From Patescibacteria group bacterium (GTDB lineage Bacteria > Patescibacteriota > Patescibacteriia > CAIXNZ01): a stretch of 64,000 nucleotides of DNA. The notes under the pieces are model-generated. The model was not told where the DNA came from, ran no database searches, and saw only the letters and a list, made by a program, of their open reading frames with translations. The position numbers and the translations under genes were made by a program. Location of the stretch: assembly GCA_028714455.1 (NCBI GenBank), contig JAQTMG010000003.1, positions 39,834-103,833 on the forward strand, given 5' to 3'. Shown piece by piece: positions 11,192-56,878 of the stretch. The first letter of the stretch is position 1. Each line of letters opens with the position of its first letter.

Positions 11192-11322
11192 GGCGAAAAC
11201 GGACATTATCGTCGTTGTAGAGACGGGGCATACCCTGTCTCTACGTCATGTATCATATGACGATAATGTAGAGACGCGGTGCACCGCGTCTCTACGGCGT
11301 TTTACGCCGTCCGTTTTCGCCC
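11192..11322. repeat. Structured palindromic repeat (REP/MITE-like), copy 1, double-core
   Basis: Outer 13-bp inverted repeat GGCGAAAACGGAC..GTCCGTTTTCGCC enclosing two 28-bp palindromes: GTAGAGACGGGGCATACCCTGTCTCTAC (11217-11244) and GTAGAGACGCGGTGCACCGCGTCTCTAC (11268-11295). Confidence 0.85.
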
Positions 11323-17366: not shown

Positions 17367-17506
17367 GTCTTCCTCCTTGCGCCAAACACGGGCTTTTGCG
17401 CGTGTTTGGGGCGTCTTGAAATGAACATTTACTTTGTCTGTCAAAGTAATCCGCCACCTTGGTCGGATAGTTCAAGTTAACAAAAAAATGGTGTTTTTGT
17501 CAATAG

Positions 17507-17590
17507 GGGCGAAAACGCTTTAACGAAAGTAGAGACGCGGTGCACCGCGTCTCTACAATATAAAATAATTTTTTATAAGCGTTTTCGCCC
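17507..17590. repeat. Structured palindromic repeat, copy 2
   Basis: GGGGCGAAAACGC..GCGTTTTCGCCC outer IR around core GTAGAGACGCGGTGCACCGCGTCTCTAC (17529-17556). Confidence 0.85.
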
Positions 17591-17604
17591 AGCCTCAACA
17601 AATT

Positions 17605-39629: not shown

Positions 39630-40188
39630 AATTGTAATAATTTAATAAATTATTATATAAACCTTCTTGTAAAAGCGGCGCGCGCTCTAATGTTATTTTA
39701 ACACGCCTAATGAAAACCGGCTTGTCCGCGCTCAAACCAGGAATTGAAATCATAAAGCGCAGTTTTCCCTTATTTATATTTTTACCAGCCATATCATAGA
39801 CCAAGCTACTGATTTTGTATCCGTCATCTGCCGAAGAACTATTATCAAGCGGCTTTAACTCCCAATCAGCGCCGATATTTGGTCCAATTTTTATTTTGTA
39901 TTTAAAATCATCTTTATATTCTATTTCTAAATCGGCTTTCTGGAAATCGCGAGGCAAAGATAAATCAAAATAAACAGGATCGTCCAAAACCTCGGGCGTC
40001 GAATCAATATTAATTAAACCCTGCGGTTTTAAAATGGAAAAATATGGAGTAAATTCTTTGAAGTCAGTAGAAACGATCAGTTTGCCGCTCCAAACCAGAT
40101 CCCGCGCGATTAAAAAAAATGCCAGGCATAATGATAAAAAAATAACCGCGGCGACAATGATAGCTGGAATGTTTTTTTGATTATTCAT
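39604..40188 (-). CDS. Hypothetical membrane-anchored protein
   Basis: N-terminal TM segment followed by a beta-rich domain. Confidence 0.35.
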   Translation of the reverse strand: MNNQKNIPAIIVAAVIFLSLCLAFFLIARDLVWSGKLIVSTDFKEFTPYFSILKPQGLINIDSTPEVLDDPVYFDLSLPRDFQKADLEIEYKDDFKYKIKIGPNIGADWELKPLDNSSSADDGYKISSLVYDMAGKNINKGKLRFMISIPGLSADKPVFIRRVKITLERAPLLQEGLYNNLLNYYNYAKVQFAR

Positions 40189-41818
40189 TGGAAAATTTAA
40201 TTTTATATAAATAATCGGTGTTCAAAATCCAAGCCCCAAAAATCAACGTTAAATTATTTTTCGTCAGCTCCTGCCTGACTGACGCGGTCTCACCATTACT
40301 GGTTGAAAAATAATAGAGCGGAACCCCCGTGTTGAGTAATTTCGACAAACTTTTTACTTCACTGGAATTGAAAATCACGACCTTTCTTTCTGGAAAAAAT
40401 ATCTTATCGCTGCGCTGACTGACAATAACCGCGTTGTTTTCGGTCATACCGATAACAATCTTATCAATTTTTGTGTAATCGGCTATATTTTGTTTAATCT
40501 TTATAAGATTGTCATTGCCGGAAATAAAAACTACGTTGATTGACAGAGCCAAGAATAAAATTATCAAAAATAAACTTAAAAGCAAACGAATCTTTTTGTT
40601 CTGAAAAAGATTAATTAAATAAACAAAAAATAAAACGGCGAAAGGCAGCGATAAAATATAAATCGGCAAAAAATACCGCACGTACGAAATACCAATCATG
40701 TTTAAGGCCAGAGTCAATTTATCTTCAAATAACCAGCTGCCATAATAAATGGTCAGGTACAGACTGGCGAAAATTGAGCACGCGGCAAAAACTATCTGAT
40801 CTTTTTTCGCCTTTATTTTCCAAAGCACGAGTATGCCAAGCAGCGCCGGCAAAGAAAGCCACCAAAAAAGTGCAAAATAATATTTTATGATATTAATAAA
40901 AGCCAGGCCGGGATTAAAACCAAAAGGCAGGAAAAGAAACCCGACAAAATTTAGAATCAAGGCGTCGTTACCTACTCTGAATTCGGCTGGCAGTTGCGAA
41001 ATTAAATTTCCACCCTGACCCAAGCGCAGATAACCAAAAGATAAGAAGCTGCCGTAGGTTTCGGCGTTGCACAAAAGAATCGGCAAAAAAACCAAAGCCA
41101 TCACGGCCAAAAAAATTATGGCATACCACCACTCGATTTTTTTGTAATAAATTGCCAGCAGCGCGATAACAATGGGTAAAACCCAGAAAAATTCATTTGT
41201 TCTTATTGTTAAAGCCAGTGAAATGAAAAACGAACTCAAAATCAAAAACAATATATTATTTTTTTTGTTAAACTTATCAATTTTAATAAGATAATAAAAA
41301 CCTATTATCAAAAAAGTCAGAAAGCTAACATTGGGCAACATGAAAAAACTGGCATAATACCACCAGGCCGGATTAATAAAAAATAAAAGCGCTGACAAAA
41401 AACCAATTCTCTTTCCAAAAATTAATTTAATCAATTTATAAAAATAAATACCCGCGATTATTGCCAAAAGGGGTGTCAGTAAAACAACCAGATCAAGGCC
41501 GACCACTTTCCCTATCAGGCCATAAATTAAAAGCATGCCCAAAAAAGAACCTGGCACCAAAGCCCCTTGATAAACGTTAAAGCTGCGCGGCTTGACTACT
41601 TCATCGGCAATCAAATTAAGAGGCTCTGAAACCGATAAATTGCTGGTCTGGATATAATTTTTGATGAAAAAATAGTTGGCCGTTTCGTCGGGCCAGGTGA
41701 ATTTTGCCGATAAATTATTATAAATCAAAAAAGAATAAACAAAAAAGAAAATAACCGCCAGCGCAGCTAAAATTAAGGAAATTATCACATTATTGAATTT
41801 TTTGCGGATTACCTCCAT
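40181..41818 (-). CDS. GT-C-fold polytopic membrane glycosyltransferase-like protein (ArnT/PMT-like)
   Basis: 545 aa with more than 10 TM helices. It has aromatic-rich loops and the typical GT-C/PMT_2 topology. Confidence 0.45.
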   Translation of the reverse strand: MEVIRKKFNNVIISLILAALAVIFFFVYSFLIYNNLSAKFTWPDETANYFFIKNYIQTSNLSVSEPLNLIADEVVKPRSFNVYQGALVPGSFLGMLLIYGLIGKVVGLDLVVLLTPLLAIIAGIYFYKLIKLIFGKRIGFLSALLFFINPAWWYYASFFMLPNVSFLTFLIIGFYYLIKIDKFNKKNNILFLILSSFFISLALTIRTNEFFWVLPIVIALLAIYYKKIEWWYAIIFLAVMALVFLPILLCNAETYGSFLSFGYLRLGQGGNLISQLPAEFRVGNDALILNFVGFLFLPFGFNPGLAFINIIKYYFALFWWLSLPALLGILVLWKIKAKKDQIVFAACSIFASLYLTIYYGSWLFEDKLTLALNMIGISYVRYFLPIYILSLPFAVLFFVYLINLFQNKKIRLLLSLFLIILFLALSINVVFISGNDNLIKIKQNIADYTKIDKIVIGMTENNAVIVSQRSDKIFFPERKVVIFNSSEVKSLSKLLNTGVPLYYFSTSNGETASVRQELTKNNLTLIFGAWILNTDYLYKIKFSNE

Positions 41819-41857
41819 TTGCTCTTAATTTTAGCAAAAATATGCTAAAATTGAAAT

Positions 41858-43912
41858 ATGGCAAAGATAATAAAACTAATTAGCTTTTTTTGTTTACTTT
41901 TAGCGGTTTTGATCAATTTTGACTGGTTAAAAATTCCAGCCTTAAGTATAATTTTAGGCTTGGTTTATTTTTTAATCTTTGGCTATCTGCTGGGGAAAAA
42001 TATCTTCAAAAGCCAGGAAGTTAGTTTCCAAACAATTCTCGGCATTTTCTCATTGATTTCTCTCTACTCCCTACTGGGAGCTGTCATCTATTATCTCTAC
42101 CAACTTGATACTTTAGCTATCAACGTTTTGCTCGTCATAATCTCTGGCTGTATTCTCTATCCAGAAATTGTAACTGAAAGCAAAATGCCAGAAATAAAAT
42201 GGCCAAAAACAAACCCGGCTTCAATTATTTTAACTATCACCTACCTTATAATCACCGCTGCCAGCTTTATCGTTCTTTGGCATTCGCAAACCACCGAAGC
42301 CATTTTTACTCCCTGGCAGGTCATACCCAGAGAATTTTTCGCGCTTTATGTTTTGGCCACAGTCAATTTATTACTAATAATTTTTAGAAATAAAAATTTT
42401 CTCACCCCGTTTTTGATTGTTATGCATTACTTTCTGACAATCAGCGTGGCACTCATAATTTACAAGCTCGGCTATGGCTTTGATCCTTTCATTCACCAGG
42501 CCACGGAAAAAGTAATTTTTGACAAAGGTCTAATTTTGCCAAAACCATTTTATTATCTTGGACAATATTCTCTGGTTGTTTTCCTGGCTAAATTTTTACA
42601 ACAATCGGTTGATTTAATTGACAAACTCCTGCTGCCCATCTTACTTTCAGTATTTTTGCCTTACACGATTTACAAGAGTTTAAAAAAAACTTTTGACTGG
42701 CAAAAAAGCATTACTTTAATTTTGGGATTAAGTTTCCTGCTTCTTCCTTTCGGCCTTTTTATCGCCACCACGCCGCAAGCTCTGGCGGGATTTTATTGTC
42801 TGGTAATTATTTTCTTGTCTTTTTTATATTTTCAGAATAAACAAATTCCTCTGGCCGCTCTTATTTTATTGGCTCTGACGACCATTGCCATCCATCCAAT
42901 CGCCGGCCTGCCGATTTTAATCTACCTTATTATTCTGTATCTTGTAAAAAACTTAAATAATCTCGCGGTGAAAATAATCTTGCCGATTTTCTGCGCGCTC
43001 TCGGCTTTTATTTTGCCGATTGCCTTGCTTTTCAATTCATTTATCTCAATAAACAAAGTCAGCTGGCTGCCAAATTCAGTCAGCTTCATTGATTGGCCCA
43101 GCATCTTTATGACTCAATTCAGATTTTTTCCTGATCTGGCTTATCTTTACCGAAATTTTATCTATTGGCTTTTCATTCTGATTGCCCTAATCACCTTCGC
43201 CTATTTAATTAAAACGAAAAGGGCCAAAATCTTTGTCGCGTCACTCATAACTTTTGCCATTCTGGTTATCAACGCTTTTTTACTAAATTTTATTAAAGTT
43301 AATTACATTATTAATTACGAACAAGGCGATTTTAGTCGACGAGTCTGGCAAATAGCTTTTTATTTTCTGCTACCGATTGTTTGTTATGGACTTTATTTCT
43401 TCATTCAAAAAGCCTGGCAAAAATCCGCTGTCTATAAAATATTTTTAATCGTTTCTCTTACCCTTTCTCTCACTCTTTGCTTATATTTAAGTTATCCGCG
43501 CTTTGATGACTATGACAACAGCAAGTTTATCAATGTCAGCGCCGCGGATTTTCAAGCCGTTCAATTCATCGACAAAGACAGCGCCGGACAAAATTACATT
43601 GTGCTGGTCAACCAGATGACCAGTGCCGCCGCCCTGCAAACATTTGGCTTCACAAATTATTACAACAATAATTATTTTTACCCGATTCCAACCGGCGGCG
43701 ATCTTTATAAATATTATGAAAAAATGATTTACACCGAGACCTCAAAAAAAACAATGGTCGCGGCCATGGATTTTGCCAAAGTAAAACTCGCCTATTTTGT
43801 CTTGCCGACTTATCTTAAAACATTTACACAAATCGACCAGAAAGCCGAGAGCAGCGCCGATATGGTCTATAACATCGGCGATAAGATCTATATTTACAAG
43901 TACTCAAAATAA
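41858..43912 (+). CDS. Large polytopic membrane protein (possible GT-C-like glycosyltransferase / YfhO-like)
   Basis: 684 aa with more than 12 TM helices, divergent from the preceding GT-C-like gene. Confidence 0.4.
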   Translation: MAKIIKLISFFCLLLAVLINFDWLKIPALSIILGLVYFLIFGYLLGKNIFKSQEVSFQTILGIFSLISLYSLLGAVIYYLYQLDTLAINVLLVIISGCILYPEIVTESKMPEIKWPKTNPASIILTITYLIITAASFIVLWHSQTTEAIFTPWQVIPREFFALYVLATVNLLLIIFRNKNFLTPFLIVMHYFLTISVALIIYKLGYGFDPFIHQATEKVIFDKGLILPKPFYYLGQYSLVVFLAKFLQQSVDLIDKLLLPILLSVFLPYTIYKSLKKTFDWQKSITLILGLSFLLLPFGLFIATTPQALAGFYCLVIIFLSFLYFQNKQIPLAALILLALTTIAIHPIAGLPILIYLIILYLVKNLNNLAVKIILPIFCALSAFILPIALLFNSFISINKVSWLPNSVSFIDWPSIFMTQFRFFPDLAYLYRNFIYWLFILIALITFAYLIKTKRAKIFVASLITFAILVINAFLLNFIKVNYIINYEQGDFSRRVWQIAFYFLLPIVCYGLYFFIQKAWQKSAVYKIFLIVSLTLSLTLCLYLSYPRFDDYDNSKFINVSAADFQAVQFIDKDSAGQNYIVLVNQMTSAAALQTFGFTNYYNNNYFYPIPTGGDLYKYYEKMIYTETSKKTMVAAMDFAKVKLAYFVLPTYLKTFTQIDQKAESSADMVYNIGDKIYIYKYSK

Positions 43913-43999
43913 GGGGCGAAAACGCTTTCACGTAAAAAACGCTGCCGTAGAGACAGGGTATACCCTGTCTCTACTTTTTATTCAAGGCGTTTTCGCCCC
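43913..43999. repeat. Structured palindromic repeat, copy 3
   Basis: GGGGCGAAAACGC..GCGTTTTCGCCCC outer IR around core GTAGAGACAGGGTATACCCTGTCTCTAC (43947-43974). Confidence 0.85.
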
Positions 44000-44030
44000 A
44001 AAGAAAAAGCCCCATCAATTGATAGGGCTT
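43999..44030 (-). terminator. Rho-independent terminator of the RT gene
   Basis: GCCCTATCAATTGATGGGGC hairpin followed by TTTTTCTTT on the minus strand, abutting the RT stop codon. Confidence 0.55.
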
Positions 44031-45256
44031 TTAATATTTCCCAATATTTTTTACGTAAGTTCCTGCTTCGCCCGAATAACGAATCAAAAAAACGTCATAA
44101 AGAACCGCGTCTACCTCTTGCCACAAATTCTCGGCCGTTTCTCTAATAATGAAACACTGCATGCCGCTTAGCTTAAGATACAACGGCCAAATTTTTGTCT
44201 CAAAATCATCCTTTTGTTCAAGCGCTTTTTTTAGGTTAAAAATGGTCAGGCGCAAACGCAACTTAAACTTCCGAGTATTGCGCACCTGGCCATCAACCAC
44301 ATTCAGTCCTAACGTGTGCAGAATATGCCCTCGTCTGGCAAAATATGATTTATGCAAATAGTAGCGCTGATAATAGGCTCCTTTATTTTGCCACCAACCA
44401 TCTGGGTCAGGCGCCTCTTTCAGTTCATAACCCCTTTTAGCGATACGAAAAACCGCTGAAATAACGGGCGCATGCCACACAATGCAACCGCGATATTTCT
44501 CAATATCTTCCTGACCCGCTGGTTTCACAAAGTAATCGTCAGCGGAGGGATCATCTGGCCGTTCTTCGCCGCGCTCAATGTGTCTTTTTTTTGTTTCCGG
44601 CCAAAATTCTGGCGCTGTGATAAAAATGTTGTCCGCGTAACGTACGTAAGTACCCCTGATGTTCTTGGCTAGCTCGGAAAGCTCGTAATCAAAGGGTTCA
44701 AAACAAAAATCAAACAAGCGCGGGCTGGTTGGCGCGCCTTGTGGCAAACCAAAAGCCGGTAGCCCCTTTTTCTTTTGATTAAACCAGGTCGTCAAACAGG
44801 TCAAATAATAAGAGGCGTAATAACCGTACTTTTTTGACTTGAAAAAATTGAAGACCGCGCGACCGCTTGTCGAAGGAAAAGCATCCTTCACGTCAGTCGT
44901 AAAAACCGCCTGGTCTGCCTTAGCAATAGCCAATGCCGCCTCTTTGACTCCACCGCCAGAAAATCCATAGACATTTCTATGACGGTCCAGCGGCTCAAGA
45001 ATATTTTTGTTGACAGCCCGCTGAATTGTCATCAAATCAGGGTGCGGAATCTGTAAAATTCTTCTGCCGCCGCTTCTTTTAGCAATTGTAATGGTTGAAT
45101 AAAGCCATGGACTCCTGACAATTGCCGCCCACAAAATTCTACGGAATTTTTCGAAATCATTAAAAGGATAATTCAGTTCAGCGAACAAATACCAGGCTGC
45201 TTTTCTGCCTGATTCCCTTAATAAGGGATTTTTAATGCGCTCACGCGATTTCAACA
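44031..45256 (-). CDS. Stand-alone reverse transcriptase (retron/DRT-like; motif C = YADN)
   Basis: RT motifs in order: 1/2 RRILQIPHPDLMTIQRAV, A FTTDVKDAF, B' GLPQGAPTSPRLFD, C YVRYADNIF. The proposed start is TTG 45256, 8 nt after AGGAGG; the ORF track's ATG 45383 would add 42 aa lacking an RBS. GC content is elevated. No maturase, endonuclease or other fused domain was recognised. Confidence 0.75.
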
Positions 45257-45294
45257 ATATTATCACCTCCTTTCCATGTTTTTTGTTTTCAAAG

Positions 45295-45695
45295 AAAAGG
45301 GAGGGGTAAATTCCCCTCCCACCGCTGGTTACTCGCGAATCGCAAGCTGTGCGTGTACCGATCAAGAACCGGGTGATTTGCATATTGCCGTCAGAATTCT
45401 GACAGCCCCTTTCGGCTATTTTAGGATCTCTTAGGGTTCCGGCAATAAAGCTAACTGTCTTGATCTAATTTCGGATTTTAGGGTTAGGGAGGGGTGCAAG
45501 ATTTATACATTTACTTCAAGTTTTGGTTATCCCCTCTCCTTCTAATTAAACCGAATTACCGAGCCAGTTACCTTCGCCGAAAATTATCTAGAGAAGGATA
45601 CGCAGTTTATGTACCTAACTCAAGTTTCGGCTAATCCTTCTCTTTATCCTATTTGGCCTCAAAGCTCGCTAACCAGCGAATGATAATACTTTAGT
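45295..45695 (-). ncRNA. Candidate RT-associated structured ncRNA (about 380 nt) directly upstream of and co-oriented with the RT
   Basis: Minus-strand promoter-like TTGACT-17 nt-TAAAGT at 45716-45688. Two paralogous long hairpins have conserved loops (AAACTTGA..GTA.ATAAA) and different, individually complementary stems (GAGAAGGAT/ATCCTTCTC versus GGAGAGGGG/CCCCTCC). There is a 14-bp palindrome GTCAGAATTCTGAC. The 3' end is a GC-rich hairpin GGGAGGGG-AATTTA-CCCCTCCC followed by TTTTCTTTG just before the RT RBS. Confidence 0.4.
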
Positions 45696-45766
45696 TAAAA
45701 TTTATTAAAAAGTCAAGAAAAAAAGAACCTACATTTACGGGGCTCTTTTAATTTATTTTAACCTAT

Positions 45767-47158
45767 CTATTGTATTTTCCCGTCAATTACCGAGACCGCG
45801 TTTGAGCAACTAAAATTATCCGAGTTATCCACACTGCAAACTTTATAATAATATGCTCCCACGCTGGTGATGTTAACTTCTTTGTCTAAATAATTTTCCT
45901 CCTTGATTTTTCTGGTCGTAAGTTTATCGGCTGAATACGCAGGTGACATATTATAAGCCGAACGCAAAATCGCATACTCTTTAAAATCAGAATCAGAATT
46001 TTTCGTCCAGTTTAAATTAACGCCGCTTTCAGAAATGGTGGCTGACAAAACCGGCGCCCGGGGCGGAGTCGTATCTTTAACTTCTTCGGCTTGGCCAAAC
46101 TGCGCGCCGATAACGTTGCCGCAAGCTACGTTGCCATCCAGCTTCACCACGCAGATTCTATAATAATATTTCTTGCCCTGCTCTGGCGAGGCATCGAGAT
46201 AAGAATTGGTTTCTTTGCCATCAAAAGATTTAATCGAACCATCGGCTGGAAATTTCGGCGAGGCGTTTGTTTCAGATCTGACGATTTGATAATTTTTGAA
46301 ATCATCGCGATTGTAGACAGACCAGGCCAGATAAATACCATTCTCTTTATTGGTCAGAGTTAAAAGTAGGCTGTCAATGACTGTTTCAAATTTGGGAGCG
46401 GTTTGGACTGCCGGGTTTAAACCTTTGTCTAAATCAAAATTCCATTTGTACCAAGGGTCGCTTTGCTGCAAGCCGGCGCTGGCAAAATTATCAATTTTTA
46501 ATATGTCTTTTTTGGCCGCAGACAAATTCAGACTGGCTTTTTCGTTCGGATCTAGACGCATGCCGACAATCAAATTATTATCGGCGTCTCGCGCTTCAAC
46601 TTCCACTTTTTTGTCAATCGCCAATACGGTTACGCTTTTTGACGCCGTCTCATTAATTACTTCGAATTTCGTGCCAAGCGCGGTTACTATCGCGTTTTGG
46701 GCCATAACCTTATAATTCGCGCCAACGCTCAAGTTGTAATAAACCCTGCCCTGCGTCTGCTTGACTATAAAATTTGTTTCGTCGGTATCTTGAAAAATGA
46801 TTTCCGTATTTTCCGCCAGCCTGATTATCGAGCCGTTTTCAAAATTCAAAATCGCTCGGCCATCGGCTGCCGTCTTTATTTTATCGCCCCGATGAATTAT
46901 CGTGTCAACGACTGCGGTCGCGTAATCTTTGTTTTCCACTGACATCTGGACGCCGCCGTAAATGCCAGACAGGCTCATTAAAATATTTTTACTTGACGCT
47001 ACCTGATTATTTTCGGCGGCCGGTTTCCCGATTTCAATTTTCGAAAAATAATTCGTGTAAAACCAGTATAAGAAAAATCCCGCGGCGACAATCACTCCGG
47101 CCGCGATCAGCCACTTGACGGGACTGGCCTTTCTTTTGTAATAATAAATCGCGCTCAT
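45767..47158 (-). CDS. Membrane-anchored FecR-domain protein with fibronectin-III-like repeats
   Basis: TM anchor, FecR-like segment DGRAILNFENGSIIRLAENTEIIF and two FN3-like Cys-containing modules. Confidence 0.45.
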   Translation of the reverse strand: MSAIYYYKRKASPVKWLIAAGVIVAAGFFLYWFYTNYFSKIEIGKPAAENNQVASSKNILMSLSGIYGGVQMSVENKDYATAVVDTIIHRGDKIKTAADGRAILNFENGSIIRLAENTEIIFQDTDETNFIVKQTQGRVYYNLSVGANYKVMAQNAIVTALGTKFEVINETASKSVTVLAIDKKVEVEARDADNNLIVGMRLDPNEKASLNLSAAKKDILKIDNFASAGLQQSDPWYKWNFDLDKGLNPAVQTAPKFETVIDSLLLTLTNKENGIYLAWSVYNRDDFKNYQIVRSETNASPKFPADGSIKSFDGKETNSYLDASPEQGKKYYYRICVVKLDGNVACGNVIGAQFGQAEEVKDTTPPRAPVLSATISESGVNLNWTKNSDSDFKEYAILRSAYNMSPAYSADKLTTRKIKEENYLDKEVNITSVGAYYYKVCSVDNSDNFSCSNAVSVIDGKIQ

Positions 47159-48333
47159 AGACTCAAAAGCTTATAAATATATTTTTTGATATCAAATTCC
47201 TGTGCCTTTATTTTAGCATTTTCCGAGAGATGAGAAAAATTGCCGATGTTTTGCAGGCTCAAATTCAGCTTGTTCAACAGACTAATCCTGTTGTTCGGTT
47301 CAAACAAATAGCCGCAAACGCCTTCCTGAATCAACTCGGGAATGCCGCCGATTGACGAGGCGATGACAGGTGTGGCGAATTTAAAGCTGTCATAAATCAC
47401 GCTCGGAGAATTTTCATAGCAAAGTGAAGGCACAATCGTGTAATGAACTTTTTTAAAAACCTCTCTGCCCAGCAGATTCGAGGAGATAAAGCCCAAAAAC
47501 TCGACCCAGTCGGCGTTCTCATATTTCTTTTTTAATTCATCTTCCAGACTCCCTCGACCCACCACCAAAAGCCGGCACTTGCCATTTTTATTAAATTCGG
47601 AAAAAACGTCCAGCAAAAAGGAGATGCCTTTATGCTTTTCCAGCTGACCCAGAAATAAATAATTTATTTTGTCATCTTCCAATTTTTTGTGCCAATTCGC
47701 GTCTTCCAAAATAATCGGGTTGGGCAAAACAACTTCTTTGGATTTTTTGAAAAAACCGCGCTGATGATAAAAATCCAAAAGCCATTTTGACGGGGAGACC
47801 ACGACCTCGGGGTTATTAAATAATTTCTGACAAATTTTGGCGTAAATTCGCGAAAGCCAACCCTCGCCTTCTTGACCGTAAATTATCAGACCAGAGGGAT
47901 TGACCAGTTGAACATCGTGAAGCGTATGAATATTTTTTAAACCCAAACTTTTAACGGCCGTGGGCGTTAAATAGCCAATACCTTTTAAATTATGCGTTAA
48001 AACAAGGTCTGGTTTTTCCTGCCGCAGGATTTCCTTAACTTGAAAATACGAATGTAAATTAAAAGCATCAATAATGTGCCACAAAAATCTTTTCCAGGCG
48101 GGTTGTTTGCCTATTTCCACAAATGAAAACAGGTTCAGAGGATAAAAACGATATATTTTAATATCATCCATCAGCGAAACAAAGAATTTTTTCTTGTCCT
48201 TGTGCCTGGAAATTGTGATAACAAAAACATCATGGCCGTCTTTTTTTAGTTCTTTGACAATGTTCGAAAATACAACCTCGGCCCCTCCCCGTTTATATGG
48301 CTTATACAAACTATTTATCAACGCAATTTTCAT
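47155..48333 (-). CDS. Glycosyltransferase family 4 (GT-B)
   Basis: MKIALINSLYKPYKRGGAEV N-terminus and a C-terminal E-X7-E-like region. Confidence 0.7.
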   Translation of the reverse strand: MKIALINSLYKPYKRGGAEVVFSNIVKELKKDGHDVFVITISRHKDKKKFFVSLMDDIKIYRFYPLNLFSFVEIGKQPAWKRFLWHIIDAFNLHSYFQVKEILRQEKPDLVLTHNLKGIGYLTPTAVKSLGLKNIHTLHDVQLVNPSGLIIYGQEGEGWLSRIYAKICQKLFNNPEVVVSPSKWLLDFYHQRGFFKKSKEVVLPNPIILEDANWHKKLEDDKINYLFLGQLEKHKGISFLLDVFSEFNKNGKCRLLVVGRGSLEDELKKKYENADWVEFLGFISSNLLGREVFKKVHYTIVPSLCYENSPSVIYDSFKFATPVIASSIGGIPELIQEGVCGYLFEPNNRISLLNKLNLSLQNIGNFSHLSENAKIKAQEFDIKKYIYKLLSL

Positions 48334-48451
48334 ATGCCTGAATTTACGAATATACTAATGTTAATTTTATTAAATTCCGAATCATTTGTTCTCAATTCTT
48401 TAGTATTCTTTATTCTAACCTCATATAACTTCATAAACATCATAAACTCCA

Positions 48452-49630
48452 TTAACTCTTGAGCAAATCTTCATAAATACCAACCAGCCTCCTAATCAAA
48501 TATTCCTGGCCAAAATATTTTTCAGCCTTTTGCCTACCCTGCTGGCCCATTTTTTCCCGAAGCTGATCGTCTGACAATAATTTGCTGACTCGGTTCGCCA
48601 AATCACCTTCATTTTTAACCTCAAAAAGAAAACCGTCAACCCCATCGCTAATCACACTGCGCACACCAGGCAAGTTTGAAGCGACTACCGGCTTGCCGCA
48701 GGCCATAGCTTCAATCAGGGTAATGCCAAACGCTTCGGATCTGTCAACCGAGGGCAGGACAACCAGATCGGCGAGGTTATAATAGTCGGCGATTTTTTCG
48801 TCCGTGACTGGATCAGCGAAAATTATTTTCCCGGCCAGACCCGCCTTGGACACTTCGTCTTTATATTTATTTTTTAGATTCCCCTCACCGACAATCAATA
48901 GCTTAACGTGATAATTAGAATCCTGACCGCCCGAATAATCGAGAACGTTGAAAGAATCAATCAAAAATTTAATGCCCTTGAAATAATGGGCCTTATCCAG
49001 CGCGCCGACAAATAGCATGACTCTATCAATTTCTGAATTTATTCCATATTTATAGAGCAGCTCCTTATTTTTCTTGGAGGGAAAAAACTTTTCCAAGTCA
49101 ACGCTCGGCGGCAATTCCAAAAATTTTTCCGGAGTTTTGGCCACCAGGGCGTTAATATTCGAGGTCTGCGCGTAGTCAAGCGAGGTGACAATAACTTTAT
49201 CAGCGGAATTTATTATGCGAGGCATGATGAACTTGGTATGAAAACTAAAAAATGGTTTCATAAAAATTCCGCCCACCACATCCATATGATAAGTGATCAC
49301 CAGATTTATTTTGCTCTCGTTTAATAGCTTAGCCAGCCAAACCACTTCAGCGCCGCCAAAAAAGGGATAATGCAAGTGCACAATATCAAAATCTTTTAAG
49401 GACCAGAGCAATTGCGGCAAAAAAGCGCCGTTGCCGAGCCGGCCAAAAGTCGAGAGCCGCTTAATCTCAAACTCATCGCTCTTATAATTTTTATCATCTA
49501 CGTTATAAAGCGGCGTAAAAACCGTGACTTGGTGCCCCAATTTGGCCAAACCTAATGATTCCTCGGCGGCCATATTACTGATACCGCCTTTGTAGGGCTT
49601 AAACCGACAAACTATTTGAGCTATTTTCAT
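48452..49630 (-). CDS. Glycosyltransferase family 4 (GT-B)
   Basis: GT4 hallmarks: C-terminal E-X7-E-like region (SEAFGITLIEAMACGKPVV) and an N-terminal GGxxxxxxE-like motif. Confidence 0.7.
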   Translation of the reverse strand: MKIAQIVCRFKPYKGGISNMAAEESLGLAKLGHQVTVFTPLYNVDDKNYKSDEFEIKRLSTFGRLGNGAFLPQLLWSLKDFDIVHLHYPFFGGAEVVWLAKLLNESKINLVITYHMDVVGGIFMKPFFSFHTKFIMPRIINSADKVIVTSLDYAQTSNINALVAKTPEKFLELPPSVDLEKFFPSKKNKELLYKYGINSEIDRVMLFVGALDKAHYFKGIKFLIDSFNVLDYSGGQDSNYHVKLLIVGEGNLKNKYKDEVSKAGLAGKIIFADPVTDEKIADYYNLADLVVLPSVDRSEAFGITLIEAMACGKPVVASNLPGVRSVISDGVDGFLFEVKNEGDLANRVSKLLSDDQLREKMGQQGRQKAEKYFGQEYLIRRLVGIYEDLLKS

Positions 49631-56299: not shown

Positions 56300-56878
56300 T
56301 TAATTTAAAATGTTAAATTCAACCGCCTCTTTGGGATTATCACGATCAAATTCCCAATTTACCGGATTATTGGCAATATATCCTTTTATCCGCGCGTAAT
56401 CTTCATCGTTTTTGATAATGTGTTCGTAATAATTATCTTGCCATTTGAAATCAAGGTTATTTTCATGGCATTTGCGCGTAACGGCACCTTTAAATGTATT
56501 AACGACAGACGATAATGATTTTGGTTTGACGTGGCCAAATTTATTCCGTGTAGAGACAGGGTATACCCTGTCTCTACAATTTTTTGCAAAATCATTTTCG
56601 TCGCATTCAATTTCAATTATCCCATGAACATGATTTGGCATGATTATCCAATCGTCCAATCTTATATTATTAAAATGCTTTGGTATCTCCAACCAACAAT
56701 CAAAAACGACTTTCCCAACCTCCGATAAATAAACATTATTATCCTTAATTTCACCCAAATCGTATATTCTGTCTTTGGTGCAAATTGTCACGAAATAAAA
56801 ACCTCCTTTGGCATAATCCCATTCCATCAAACGCATACTCGCCACGCGATATTTATTTTTAAAATATTCGTCCCCCAT
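56300..56878 (-). CDS. IS200/IS605-family Y1 transposase-like protein (RAYT-like) carrying a copy of the GTAGAGAC palindromic repeat in-frame
   Basis: HuH motif MPNHVHGII and C-terminal WQDNYYEHIIKNDEDYARIKGYIANNP (RAYT-like). The core GTAGAGACAGGGTATACCCTGTCTCTAC lies at 56549-56576 inside the ORF, translated RDRVYPVSTR. Confidence 0.6.
   Translation of the reverse strand: MGDEYFKNKYRVASMRLMEWDYAKGGFYFVTICTKDRIYDLGEIKDNNVYLSEVGKVVFDCWLEIPKHFNNIRLDDWIIMPNHVHGIIEIECDENDFAKNCRDRVYPVSTRNKFGHVKPKSLSSVVNTFKGAVTRKCHENNLDFKWQDNYYEHIIKNDEDYARIKGYIANNPVNWEFDRDNPKEAVEFNILN
56549..56576. repeat. Structured palindromic repeat core, copy 4 (intragenic)
   Basis: Identical to the core of copy 3; no outer GGGGCGAAAACG inverted repeat. 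Confidence 0.85.

Follow-up and report, generated by a model that had tools for sequence, protein, structure and literature searches.

A candidate stand-alone retron-type reverse transcriptase cassette with a YADN catalytic motif in Patescibacteria

A stretch of 64,000 nt from a Patescibacteria group bacterium (GenBank assembly GCA_028714455.1, contig JAQTMG010000003.1, positions 39,834 to 103,833; hereafter, the window) carries on its minus strand the gene of a reverse transcriptase (RT), preceded on the same strand by a region predicted to specify a structured non-coding RNA (ncRNA). With a probability of roughly 55%, we read this locus as a stand-alone retron-type cassette, in which an ncRNA gene that has a promoter and a terminator of its own precedes the gene of the cognate RT. 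The RT is retron-type, its best matches among profiles, proteins of solved structure and folds all being retron RTs. The two ends of the ncRNA, designated a1 (5′) and a2 (3′), are complementary to each other with covariation, as are a1 and a2 of retrons, and the clade to which the RT belongs co-occurs exclusively with an RNA bearing one particular hairpin, called here the universal hairpin. A first-pass annotation, made from the sequence of the window, had described the locus as resembling either retrons or the defence-associated reverse transcriptases (DRT) of the DRT2/DRT9 type, with no effector gene; the analysis presented below upheld the former likeness and the missing effector, and it spoke against the latter.

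The reverse transcriptase and its clade

The open reading frame (ORF) listed for the RT spans 44031-45383, and its functional start was placed at the TTG codon at 45257, 8 nt past the Shine-Dalgarno (SD) sequence GGAGG. The resulting protein of 408 amino acids (aa) is a 100% match to the database protein P0001, which was called with the same TTG start, and the N-termini of 17 homologues line up at this position in the alignment. From the range of 408 to 450 aa given at first pass, the lower value is therefore to be kept; the 450-aa version would start within the RNA element, and its extension is not conserved. RVT_1 was the sole Pfam domain found, and the AlphaFold2 (AF2) model built on the family alignment (predicted local distance difference test score, pLDDT, 84.6) consists of fingers, palm and a three-helix thumb, without any added domain; the small insertion that follows motif C is poorly conserved. 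Both the start after AGGAGG and the lack of a fused domain are thus borne out.

It should be added that a mini-ORF of four codons (ATG GAA AGG AGG TGA, 45263-45277, minus strand) overlaps the ribosome-binding site of the RT; a similar one occurs in the homologous locus L002 and is absent from L164 and L001, and it is probably fortuitous. Furthermore, the RT of some clade members, noted for L012 (1101-3119) and for protein P0131, seemingly carries an acidic N-terminal extension of ~330 aa; the ORF of L012 as called begins inside a2, and its true start is uncertain. A Pfam search of the N-terminal extensions present in some members of the clade returned no domain.

Comparison of the RT with PADLOC profiles placed RT_III-A (8.8e-34) and RT_II-A (8.8e-28) at the head of the list, whose first 25 entries were without exception models of retron RTs, and the best NCBIfam match was retron_St85_RT (3.7e-32). 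Among sequences of the PDB, Ec86 was the closest (1.2e-24), followed by Kva2, Ec67, Ec83 and Ec78. The fold comparison was in concordance with this: the top 15 Foldseek matches of the RT model were all retron RTs (E-values from 3e-14 to 1.6e-9, template modelling score, TM, up to 0.74), with Eco7/Ec78, Ec86, Ec83, Eco2 and Eco8 among the best.

Inspection of the catalytic motifs pointed at a feature that the first-pass annotation had overlooked: motif C reads YADN (residues 207-210) at the place aligned to YADD of Ec86, and neither D209 nor N210 varies among the 18 family members compared. The remaining positions include D122 in motif A, the steric-gate F127 and motif B (LPQGAPTSPRLFD). K60, R66, D122, F127, Q173/G174 and D209 are invariant in the same 18 members; the residues that bind deoxynucleoside triphosphates (dNTPs) and metal are thus otherwise invariant, and for this reason the RT is probably active. 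Judged from these residues, the YADN enzyme would be a working DNA polymerase with dNTP selectivity. Across the clade, motif A is DxK(D/N)AFPS instead of DxxDFFPS, with AF in place of FF, and motif B ends with LFD (residues 181-183 of the window RT) where canonical retron RTs have LSN. The paired replacements, N-to-D in motif B and D-to-N in motif C, may represent a relocated active-site carboxylate.

The clade was delimited, free of word bias, by an unbiased profile search over 1.84 billion representative sequences. This yielded 8 clusters at E < 1e-120 and ~60 more at 1e-66 to 1e-37, nearly all with the motif [Y/F]xDN (hereafter, xDN), which is present in ~63 of the top 75 matches; canonical YADD retron RTs appeared only further down the list, with matches weaker than E 1e-37. 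The size of the xDN clade can thus be given as ~70 clusters at 50% identity, and it is rare, with ~16 of 185,579 species representatives having a member. The search for homologous loci with RT and ncRNA produced 28 non-redundant xDN loci, and those with named contigs are mostly from Patescibacteria. Set apart by the profile search and by their motif signatures, xDN RTs appear to form a distinct and apparently undescribed retron-like lineage. Literature searches on YADN, and on retrons in connection with Patescibacteria or the Candidate Phyla Radiation (CPR), gave no description of an xDN family, and a metagenome-wide retron survey of 2026 did not mention Patescibacteria. The first-pass remark that no characterised system of this sort was known to its author from CPR-like genomes agrees with these results, the family being centred on this group.

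The upstream RNA

The features of the ncRNA unit are compiled in Table 1. The promoter, the hairpins and the terminator proposed at first pass were all located on the strand of the RT gene, and transcription of the unit is predicted from these signals. The two promoter hexamers stand at conserved positions in the nearest homologous loci and recur in the majority of the remaining ones, and a1 starts ~9 nt past the -10 box. The 393-nt region folds at -129 kcal/mol (z = -4.9; none of 100 shuffles was as good), and a second shuffle comparison gave z = -5.7. In the terminator scan, 45320-45291 was read as GGGAGGGG..CCCCTCCC with TTTTCTTT, and almost every homologous locus, with terminators located under single-hairpin constraints, has an equivalent G-rich hairpin with a U-tract after a2. 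Conservation extends to the unit as a whole, as a structured ncRNA was found upstream of every clade RT fetched. No Rfam family matched the ncRNA, either in an E-value search of 43500-46200 or in a search of the whole window at gathering thresholds. Weak matches to Phe_leader, MicC and tfoR were rejected as terminator-driven chance, the aligned part of the leader and small RNA families being the terminator of the RT gene (44003-44029); otherwise only two tRNAs were returned.

Since MAFFT alignment with RNAalifold, applied to compact ncRNAs, misaligned a1 or a2 on account of the variable 5′ part and recovered only the universal hairpin, covariation between a1 and a2 was measured by duplex energies and with a hand-anchored pair table, controlled by shuffling and sliding. 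For the 26 nt that precede the terminator, the best duplex partner was located just past the -10 box in 15 of 16 loci. Cognate a1/a2 duplexes had a mean energy of -19.0 kcal/mol vs -11.4 kcal/mol for non-cognate combinations from other lineages (p = 1e-16). In the junction-anchored table of 26 distinct sequences, 88.5% of the a1/a2 cells over 10 positions were paired, a fraction that is somewhat inflated by the hand-curated registers and to that extent weakens the case for a retron; slid registers gave 34-51%, and 2000 shuffles of the partners gave a mean of 54% and a maximum of 65%. Between two and eight pair types were seen at each of the first nine positions.

Directly after a1 stands a G in 24 of the 28 loci, and in the other four it is found 1-2 nt further. 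In retrons, the priming guanosine terminates the a1/a2 stem and has AGC as its conserved context (PMC6868368), and by analogy G45669 of the window would provide the 2′-OH primer. The string UUAGCGAG is common to the window ncRNA and the msr of Ec86; the latter sequence was verified in 48 Escherichia coli genomes, in which an overlapping gene bears the annotation retron St85 family effector.

The core of the universal hairpin, GTCAGAnnTCTGAC, occurs in exactly one copy in 25 of the 28 loci, 75-200 nt upstream of the called RT start, or 130-180 nt where this start is reliable. The three others, L004, L169 and L172, have variant hairpins at the same position, with a U-A pair replaced by C-G as read from the sequences. 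Among ~140 canonical (YxDD) retron loci, none had the hairpin upstream of the RT, the single chance match being on the wrong strand. The hairpin thereby marks the ncRNA of the clade, and it is a probable RT-binding stem-loop.

The conserved core, the order of which had been overlooked at first pass, begins with a1 and the G, continues with a variable insert, the universal hairpin and a segment of constant length, and closes with a2 and the terminator. The distance between hairpin and terminator is 71-96 nt in 28/28 loci, and the distance between a1 and hairpin varies between 32 nt (Saccharibacteria) and 276 nt (the window), with the long or variable hairpins being placed 5′ of the universal one. 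Retron reverse transcription begins beside a2 (PMC7736814), and the constant-length segment 45332-45386 is, by analogy, the putative template. In this segment, a short U-tract (3-6 U, as in CUUUUCA) is often observed 20-30 nt upstream of a2, for instance in L008, L009, L011, L007, L017, L081 and in the window (45360-45352), and a weak CGCCGC-like motif also recurs.

The two paralogous hairpin modules noted at first pass are real: five copies in three genomes have 82% mean column identity, and within the window the loop motif is confined to modules 1 and 2. They are limited, however, to the nearest relatives of the window (L001 with two copies, L002 with a single copy, L164 with a degenerate copy) and do not define the architecture; as judged from this distribution, the variable part, and not the core, has undergone a lineage-specific expansion. 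As a side observation, the arms of the ncRNA terminator, GGGAGGGG/CCCCUCCC (45299-45320), resemble those of the modules, GGAGAGGGG/CCCCUCC and AGAGAAGGAU/AUCCUUCUCU. Moreover, the CCUCC arms of terminator and modules could base-pair with GGAGG, the ribosome-binding site of the RT, so that alternative pairings may be possible.

Table 1. Features of the cassette and its immediate surroundings in the window
Feature	Position	Strand	Evidence and remarks
ncRNA promoter, sigma-70-like, TTGACT-17-TAAAGT	45688-45716	minus	Consensus scan
Whole ncRNA unit (msr/msd-like), predicted 5′ end to end of U-tract	45291-45681	minus	Fold and conservation
a1 (CGCUGGUUA), 5′ arm of end-to-end stem	45670-45678	minus	Pairs with 45331-45323 in minimum free energy (MFE) fold
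Putative priming (branching) G, in UUA-G-C	45669	minus	Directly after a1
Hairpin module 1 (10-bp stem AGAGAAGGAU/AUCCUUCUCU; ~34-nt loop CCGAAACUUGA...ACAUAA)	45590-45643	minus	MFE fold, paralogue alignment; arms 45634-45643/45590-45599
Hairpin module 2 (stem GGAGAGGGG/CCCCUCC; paralogous loop)	45487-45539	minus	MFE fold, paralogue alignment; arms 45531-45539/45487-45494
Universal hairpin GCUGUCAGAAUUCUGACGGC (8-bp stem, ANNU loop)	45387-45406	minus	Motif scan of loci
Constant-length segment, putative msd template for ~55-nt RT-DNA	45332-45386	minus	Interval from hairpin to a2
a2 (UAACCAGCG), 3′ arm of end-to-end stem	45323-45331	minus	As for a1
ncRNA intrinsic terminator, GGGAGGGG-AAUUUA-CCCCUCCC + UUUUCUUU	45291-45320	minus	Terminator scan
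RT gene, 408 aa, TTG start, SD GGAGG at 45270-45266	44031-45257	minus	ORF list, Pfam, profiles, homologue alignment, AF2
RT gene terminator, AGCCCUAUCAAUUGAUGGGGCU + UUUUU	44003-44029	minus	Read directly in sequence
REP-like nested palindrome (inner GTAGAGACAGGGTATACCCTGTCTCTAC, outer GGGGCGAAAACGC arms)	43913-43999		Between the convergent RT and membrane-protein genes
FecR-domain gene, flanking	45767-47158		Pfam 4.9e-11
684-aa protein gene, other flank, convergent with RT gene			Hydrophobic by inspection; no Pfam match

Genomic setting and inheritance

All ORFs within ~5-6.5 kb of the RT were clustered across the 28 loci, and the RT was the sole gene family common to them. Accordingly, no universal effector was found within this distance, which agrees with the first-pass picture of an ncRNA followed by an RT gene without effector. 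The next downstream gene is convergent in most loci; where it is on the same strand, it encodes CysS or a membrane pyrophosphatase (both identified by inspection), TrmB (Pfam), a DUF5684 protein or a product with no Pfam match. Overall, the neighbours of the cassette include CysS, pyrophosphatase, tRNA and envelope genes.

Seven loci, from Falkowbacteria- and Buchananbacteria-type genomes, share the gene order of the window: epimerase, GT2, GT4, GT4, FecR, cassette, convergent membrane protein of ~690 aa and PMT_2-like protein. This envelope cluster around the cassette occupies 40181-49630 in the window, where the PMT_2-like protein has 545 aa, and was also observed in L001, L002, L162, L164, L167 and L170 (ABY1-type Patescibacteria). 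In the closer genomes L001, L002 and L164, identity to the window is 60-64% for the RT, 53-58% for FecR and 69-72% for the membrane protein; in the more distant L162, L167 and L170 the values are 44-46%, 43-47% and 51-56%, correspondingly. Across these six syntenic genomes the divergence of the RT hence tracks that of FecR and of the membrane protein, and proceeds at about the rate of FecR. Because the identity of the RT follows that of its neighbours, long vertical inheritance at a fixed site is indicated, and these data point to the cassette being inherited vertically with the envelope-glycosylation cluster in the lineage of the window. The rarity of the clade despite this vertical signal implies either frequent loss or poor sampling.

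A phage origin was considered and rejected: viral contigs scanned for the hairpin motif gave no match, and IMG/VR returned only distant and partial matches (identity up to 34% over residues 53-217), none of which resembled the family. Likewise, the module is not a compositional island. The elevated GC content reported for it at first pass did not hold, as the RT gene has 0.44 vs a window mean of 0.407 (standard deviation 0.04), a value this high is reached by 23% of windows of equal size, and the FecR gene has 0.43. As to the palindrome resembling repetitive extragenic palindromic (REP) sequences, which had been counted as a part of the module, it is present as described and yet does not belong to it, being a dispersed repeat with further copies at 11217-11244 and 56550-56577 and arms at 17506-17518 and 17579-17591; the inner palindrome occurs three times and the outer arm four times in the window vs ~0 expected.

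Two loci near tRNA genes deserve a separate description. L161 (3007-5556) and L165 are syntenic, both having tRNA-Ile/Phe/Pro/Gly, the cassette and TrmB, and L161 has an insert of two minus-strand genes between tRNA-Gly and the ncRNA, encoding a 570-aa HATPase_c_3 protein and a 278-aa protein without Pfam match; this pair may be a small variable or defence islet beside the cassette. In L082, the last 16 nt of the tRNA-Gln gene (583-657) are duplicated ~105 nt downstream (~761-777), just upstream of the ncRNA, and the duplicate may be an old integration scar. Att-like repeats near tRNA genes were looked for in L165 and L161, with none found, and in L082 there was no second copy beyond the RT.

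Interpretation and relation to known systems

Canonical retrons, such as Retron-Eco1/Ec86 (type II-A) and Eco7/Ec78 (type I-A), are the systems closest to the window RT in fold and sequence. They have in common with the window cassette an ncRNA placed directly upstream on the same strand, the a1/a2 pairing, the G in AGC context and stem-loops between a1 and the template, which is putative here. Unlike them, the window cassette is effector-free, its ncRNA has its own promoter and terminator, and it appears to be inherited vertically in a housekeeping context rather than found in defence islands or prophages.

A number of features weigh against the assignment to retrons. The type-specific hidden Markov models score the window RT, at best, at 115 bits, and no PADLOC or NCBIfam retron model recognised it at member level (the NCBIfam cut-off being 235 bits); wider clade members reach 100-170 bits, spread evenly over many retron types, and a true member, P0111, has ~250 bits. 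YXDD, a motif that defines retron RTs, is replaced by YADN. Textbook retrons are described as a single transcript, and in the window a terminator is placed between ncRNA and RT gene. The segment adjacent to a2 is short (~55 nt), constant in length and weakly structured, with no obvious long hairpin, and it is 5′ of the conserved hairpin that the RNA varies, which is the reverse of the canonical msr/msd proportions. The window RT also lacks NAXXH of region X, having E-A-A-L-A-I at the aligned place, and has TLG for the VTG triplet of region Y. In the clade as a whole, region X reads A-x-x-P-H, in which Ala is displaced by one position and His is retained, the latter being lost in the window subfamily, and region Y reads (A/L/M)-L-G, with Gly invariant and both Val and Thr lost. 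In retron RTs, region X lies between RT2 and RT3 and VTG of region Y in RT7, Gly being its most conserved residue; His is the most conserved residue of region X and is possibly needed for initiation (PMC7736814, PMC6868368), and deletion of region X abolishes multicopy single-stranded DNA (msDNA) synthesis by Ec86 and Ec73 (PMC6868368).

Stand-alone (msr-msd)-RT cassettes have been reported in clade 2 (Ec107/Eco5-like, Gammaproteobacteria) and clade 11 (Actinobacteria) (PMC7736814; bioRxiv 10.64898/2026.05.14.725207). They resemble the window cassette in combining a retron-type RT and ncRNA with no recurrent accessory gene, in being restricted to certain taxa, and in that vertical inheritance and possible domestication have been suggested for them (PMC7736814). 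They differ in RT lineage (the PADLOC model RT_Ec107-like gave 69 bits with the window RT, under the III-A and II-A models), in the motif, which is of the canonical DD kind, YCDD in Ec107 (PMC6868368), vs xDN here, and in host, the window cassette being from Patescibacteria and having the universal GUCAGAnnUCUGAC hairpin. Another non-canonical case is the type VI Retron-Vpa2, which consists of a hybrid RNA, a helix-turn-helix protein and a small toxic peptide whose coding sequence is part of the RNA (bioRxiv 10.1101/2025.10.22.683967); its long structured transcript exceeds the template, and abundant msDNA is not made constitutively. This retron demonstrates that a regulatory role is possible for retron RNAs, and it differs from the window cassette, where no conserved small ORF was seen. 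Stand-alone retron cassettes are, therefore, already known, and what is new here is an effector-less, retron-like RT/ncRNA lineage with an altered catalytic core.

Among the alternatives, a self-contained defence RT of the DRT2/DRT9 kind is unlikely. In such a system, the ncRNA would be copied into the effector product itself, either a concatemeric cDNA with a toxic ORF or a homopolymer sequestering a phage protein, with no branched msDNA and no partner protein. The arrangement of one RT and one structured upstream ncRNA with no other protein, as seen in 28 loci, is indeed that of DRT2/DRT9 (UG/Abi group), the changes in the catalytic motif and in region X hint at a reaction other than the canonical one, and a short U-tract before a2 is visible by inspection in many members. 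However, the RT family is a different one, the window RT being much closer to retron RTs: the Drt2 and Drt3a models gave 27.9 and 23.4 bits against cut-offs of 390 and 200, correspondingly, the DRT2 sequence in the PDB matched at 3.9e-7 vs 1.2e-24 for Ec86, and DRT2/DRT9 folds matched with E-values of 3e-7 to 6e-7, ~6 orders of magnitude weaker than retron RTs, the range over their structures being 3e-7 to 7e-6. A never-ending ORF as in DRT2 was rejected for the ncRNA, since each of its six frames in the window is interrupted by 2-11 stops, and among the 28 homologues none of the frames stays open throughout. Finally, a1/a2 together with the G correspond to the retron priming geometry and point at priming from a 2′-OH.

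It is also doubtful that the RT is catalytically impaired or inactive and merely binds the structured RNA, in which case the ribonucleoprotein would have a regulatory or scaffolding role with no DNA synthesis. This explanation would account for the Asn in place of the second Asp of YADD throughout the clade, for the region X without His in the window subfamily and for the long vertical residence amid housekeeping genes. The Asn is, however, invariant and not drifting, the clade-wide N-to-D change of motif B may supply the carboxylate, and the other polymerase residues (motif A Asp, steric-gate Phe, motif B Q/G, first Asp of motif C, finger Lys/Arg) are invariant as well. Moreover, polymerases with xDN can be active, examples being GDN of the L proteins of mononegaviruses and the D211N mutant of the Ty1 RT in vitro.

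That the upstream region would be only a cis-acting leader or attenuator of RT expression, and neither template nor partner RNA, we regard as improbable. An intrinsic terminator does stand between promoter and RT start, and its CCUCCC arm could pair with the GGAGG ribosome-binding site; nevertheless, the pairing of the predicted 5′ and 3′ ends with covariation is a trait of a stable stand-alone RNA or a retron ncRNA and not of an attenuator, a leader would leave the invariant hairpin and the conserved G with no role, and no riboswitch or leader family of Rfam was matched.

Derivation of the locus from a group II intron or a diversity-generating retroelement (DGR), whether as a remnant or as a variant, is effectively refuted by scores, domains and repeat search, even though DGRs were reported to comprise ~80% of the RTs in CPR bacteria (PMC8632793) and group II RTs were among the weaker fold and sequence matches: the group II RT/maturase model TIGR04416 gave 35 bits vs a cut-off of 300, neither maturase or endonuclease domains (Pfam) nor intron RNA domains (Rfam) were present, the DGR RT fold matched at only 1.7e-7, and comparison of the RNA region with the rest of the window gave no template/variable repeat pair, the best being a 31-nt AT-rich match (E 0.01).

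Under the preferred interpretation of a retron-type cassette, the following mechanism may be proposed. The ncRNA would fold with a1 (45678-45670) paired to a2 (45331-45323), and this stem would set G45669 beside the 3′ end of the ~55-nt segment 45386-45332 and present its 2′-OH to the RT. The latter, translated from read-through transcripts and held by the terminator at a low level relative to the ncRNA, would dock on the universal hairpin (45406-45387), prime from the 2′-OH of G45669 and reverse-transcribe the ~55-nt segment, giving a short single-stranded DNA that is attached to the RNA and resembles msDNA. As no effector gene is present, the RT-RNA-DNA particle would act alone or with a partner encoded elsewhere; the product itself may be the active agent. 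The most likely role would be in phage sensing or defence, the alternative being a domesticated non-defence role.

More tentatively, the [Y/F]xDN clade could be a separate and ancient retron-like branch, which descended vertically over a long time in the ultra-small CPR bacteria and remained effector-free. Its rewired active site, in which motif B has taken over the Asp of motif C and the window subfamily has lost the region X His, would then make a non-canonical product from a short template of fixed length, and the RT-RNA(-DNA) particle would itself be functional, be it in a new form of immunity or in a housekeeping task such as regulation via small DNA. We consider this extended scenario possible, but doubtful.

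Retrons are viewed as defence systems of the toxin-antitoxin type, made up of three parts and with the effector restrained by RT-DNA, and the role of an RT and its RNA without effector is a question raised in the retron literature (PMC7736814). The xDN lineage represents a clean test case for it, with a cassette of less than 1.7 kb, a defined RNA signature, a natural YADD-to-YADN exchange and signs of long vertical retention in minimal genomes. Furthermore, retron-type elements would extend to the Candidate Phyla Radiation, where DGRs have been thought to be dominant among RTs, and, if active, this small RT/ncRNA pair with its short template would be a candidate for DNA production in vivo.

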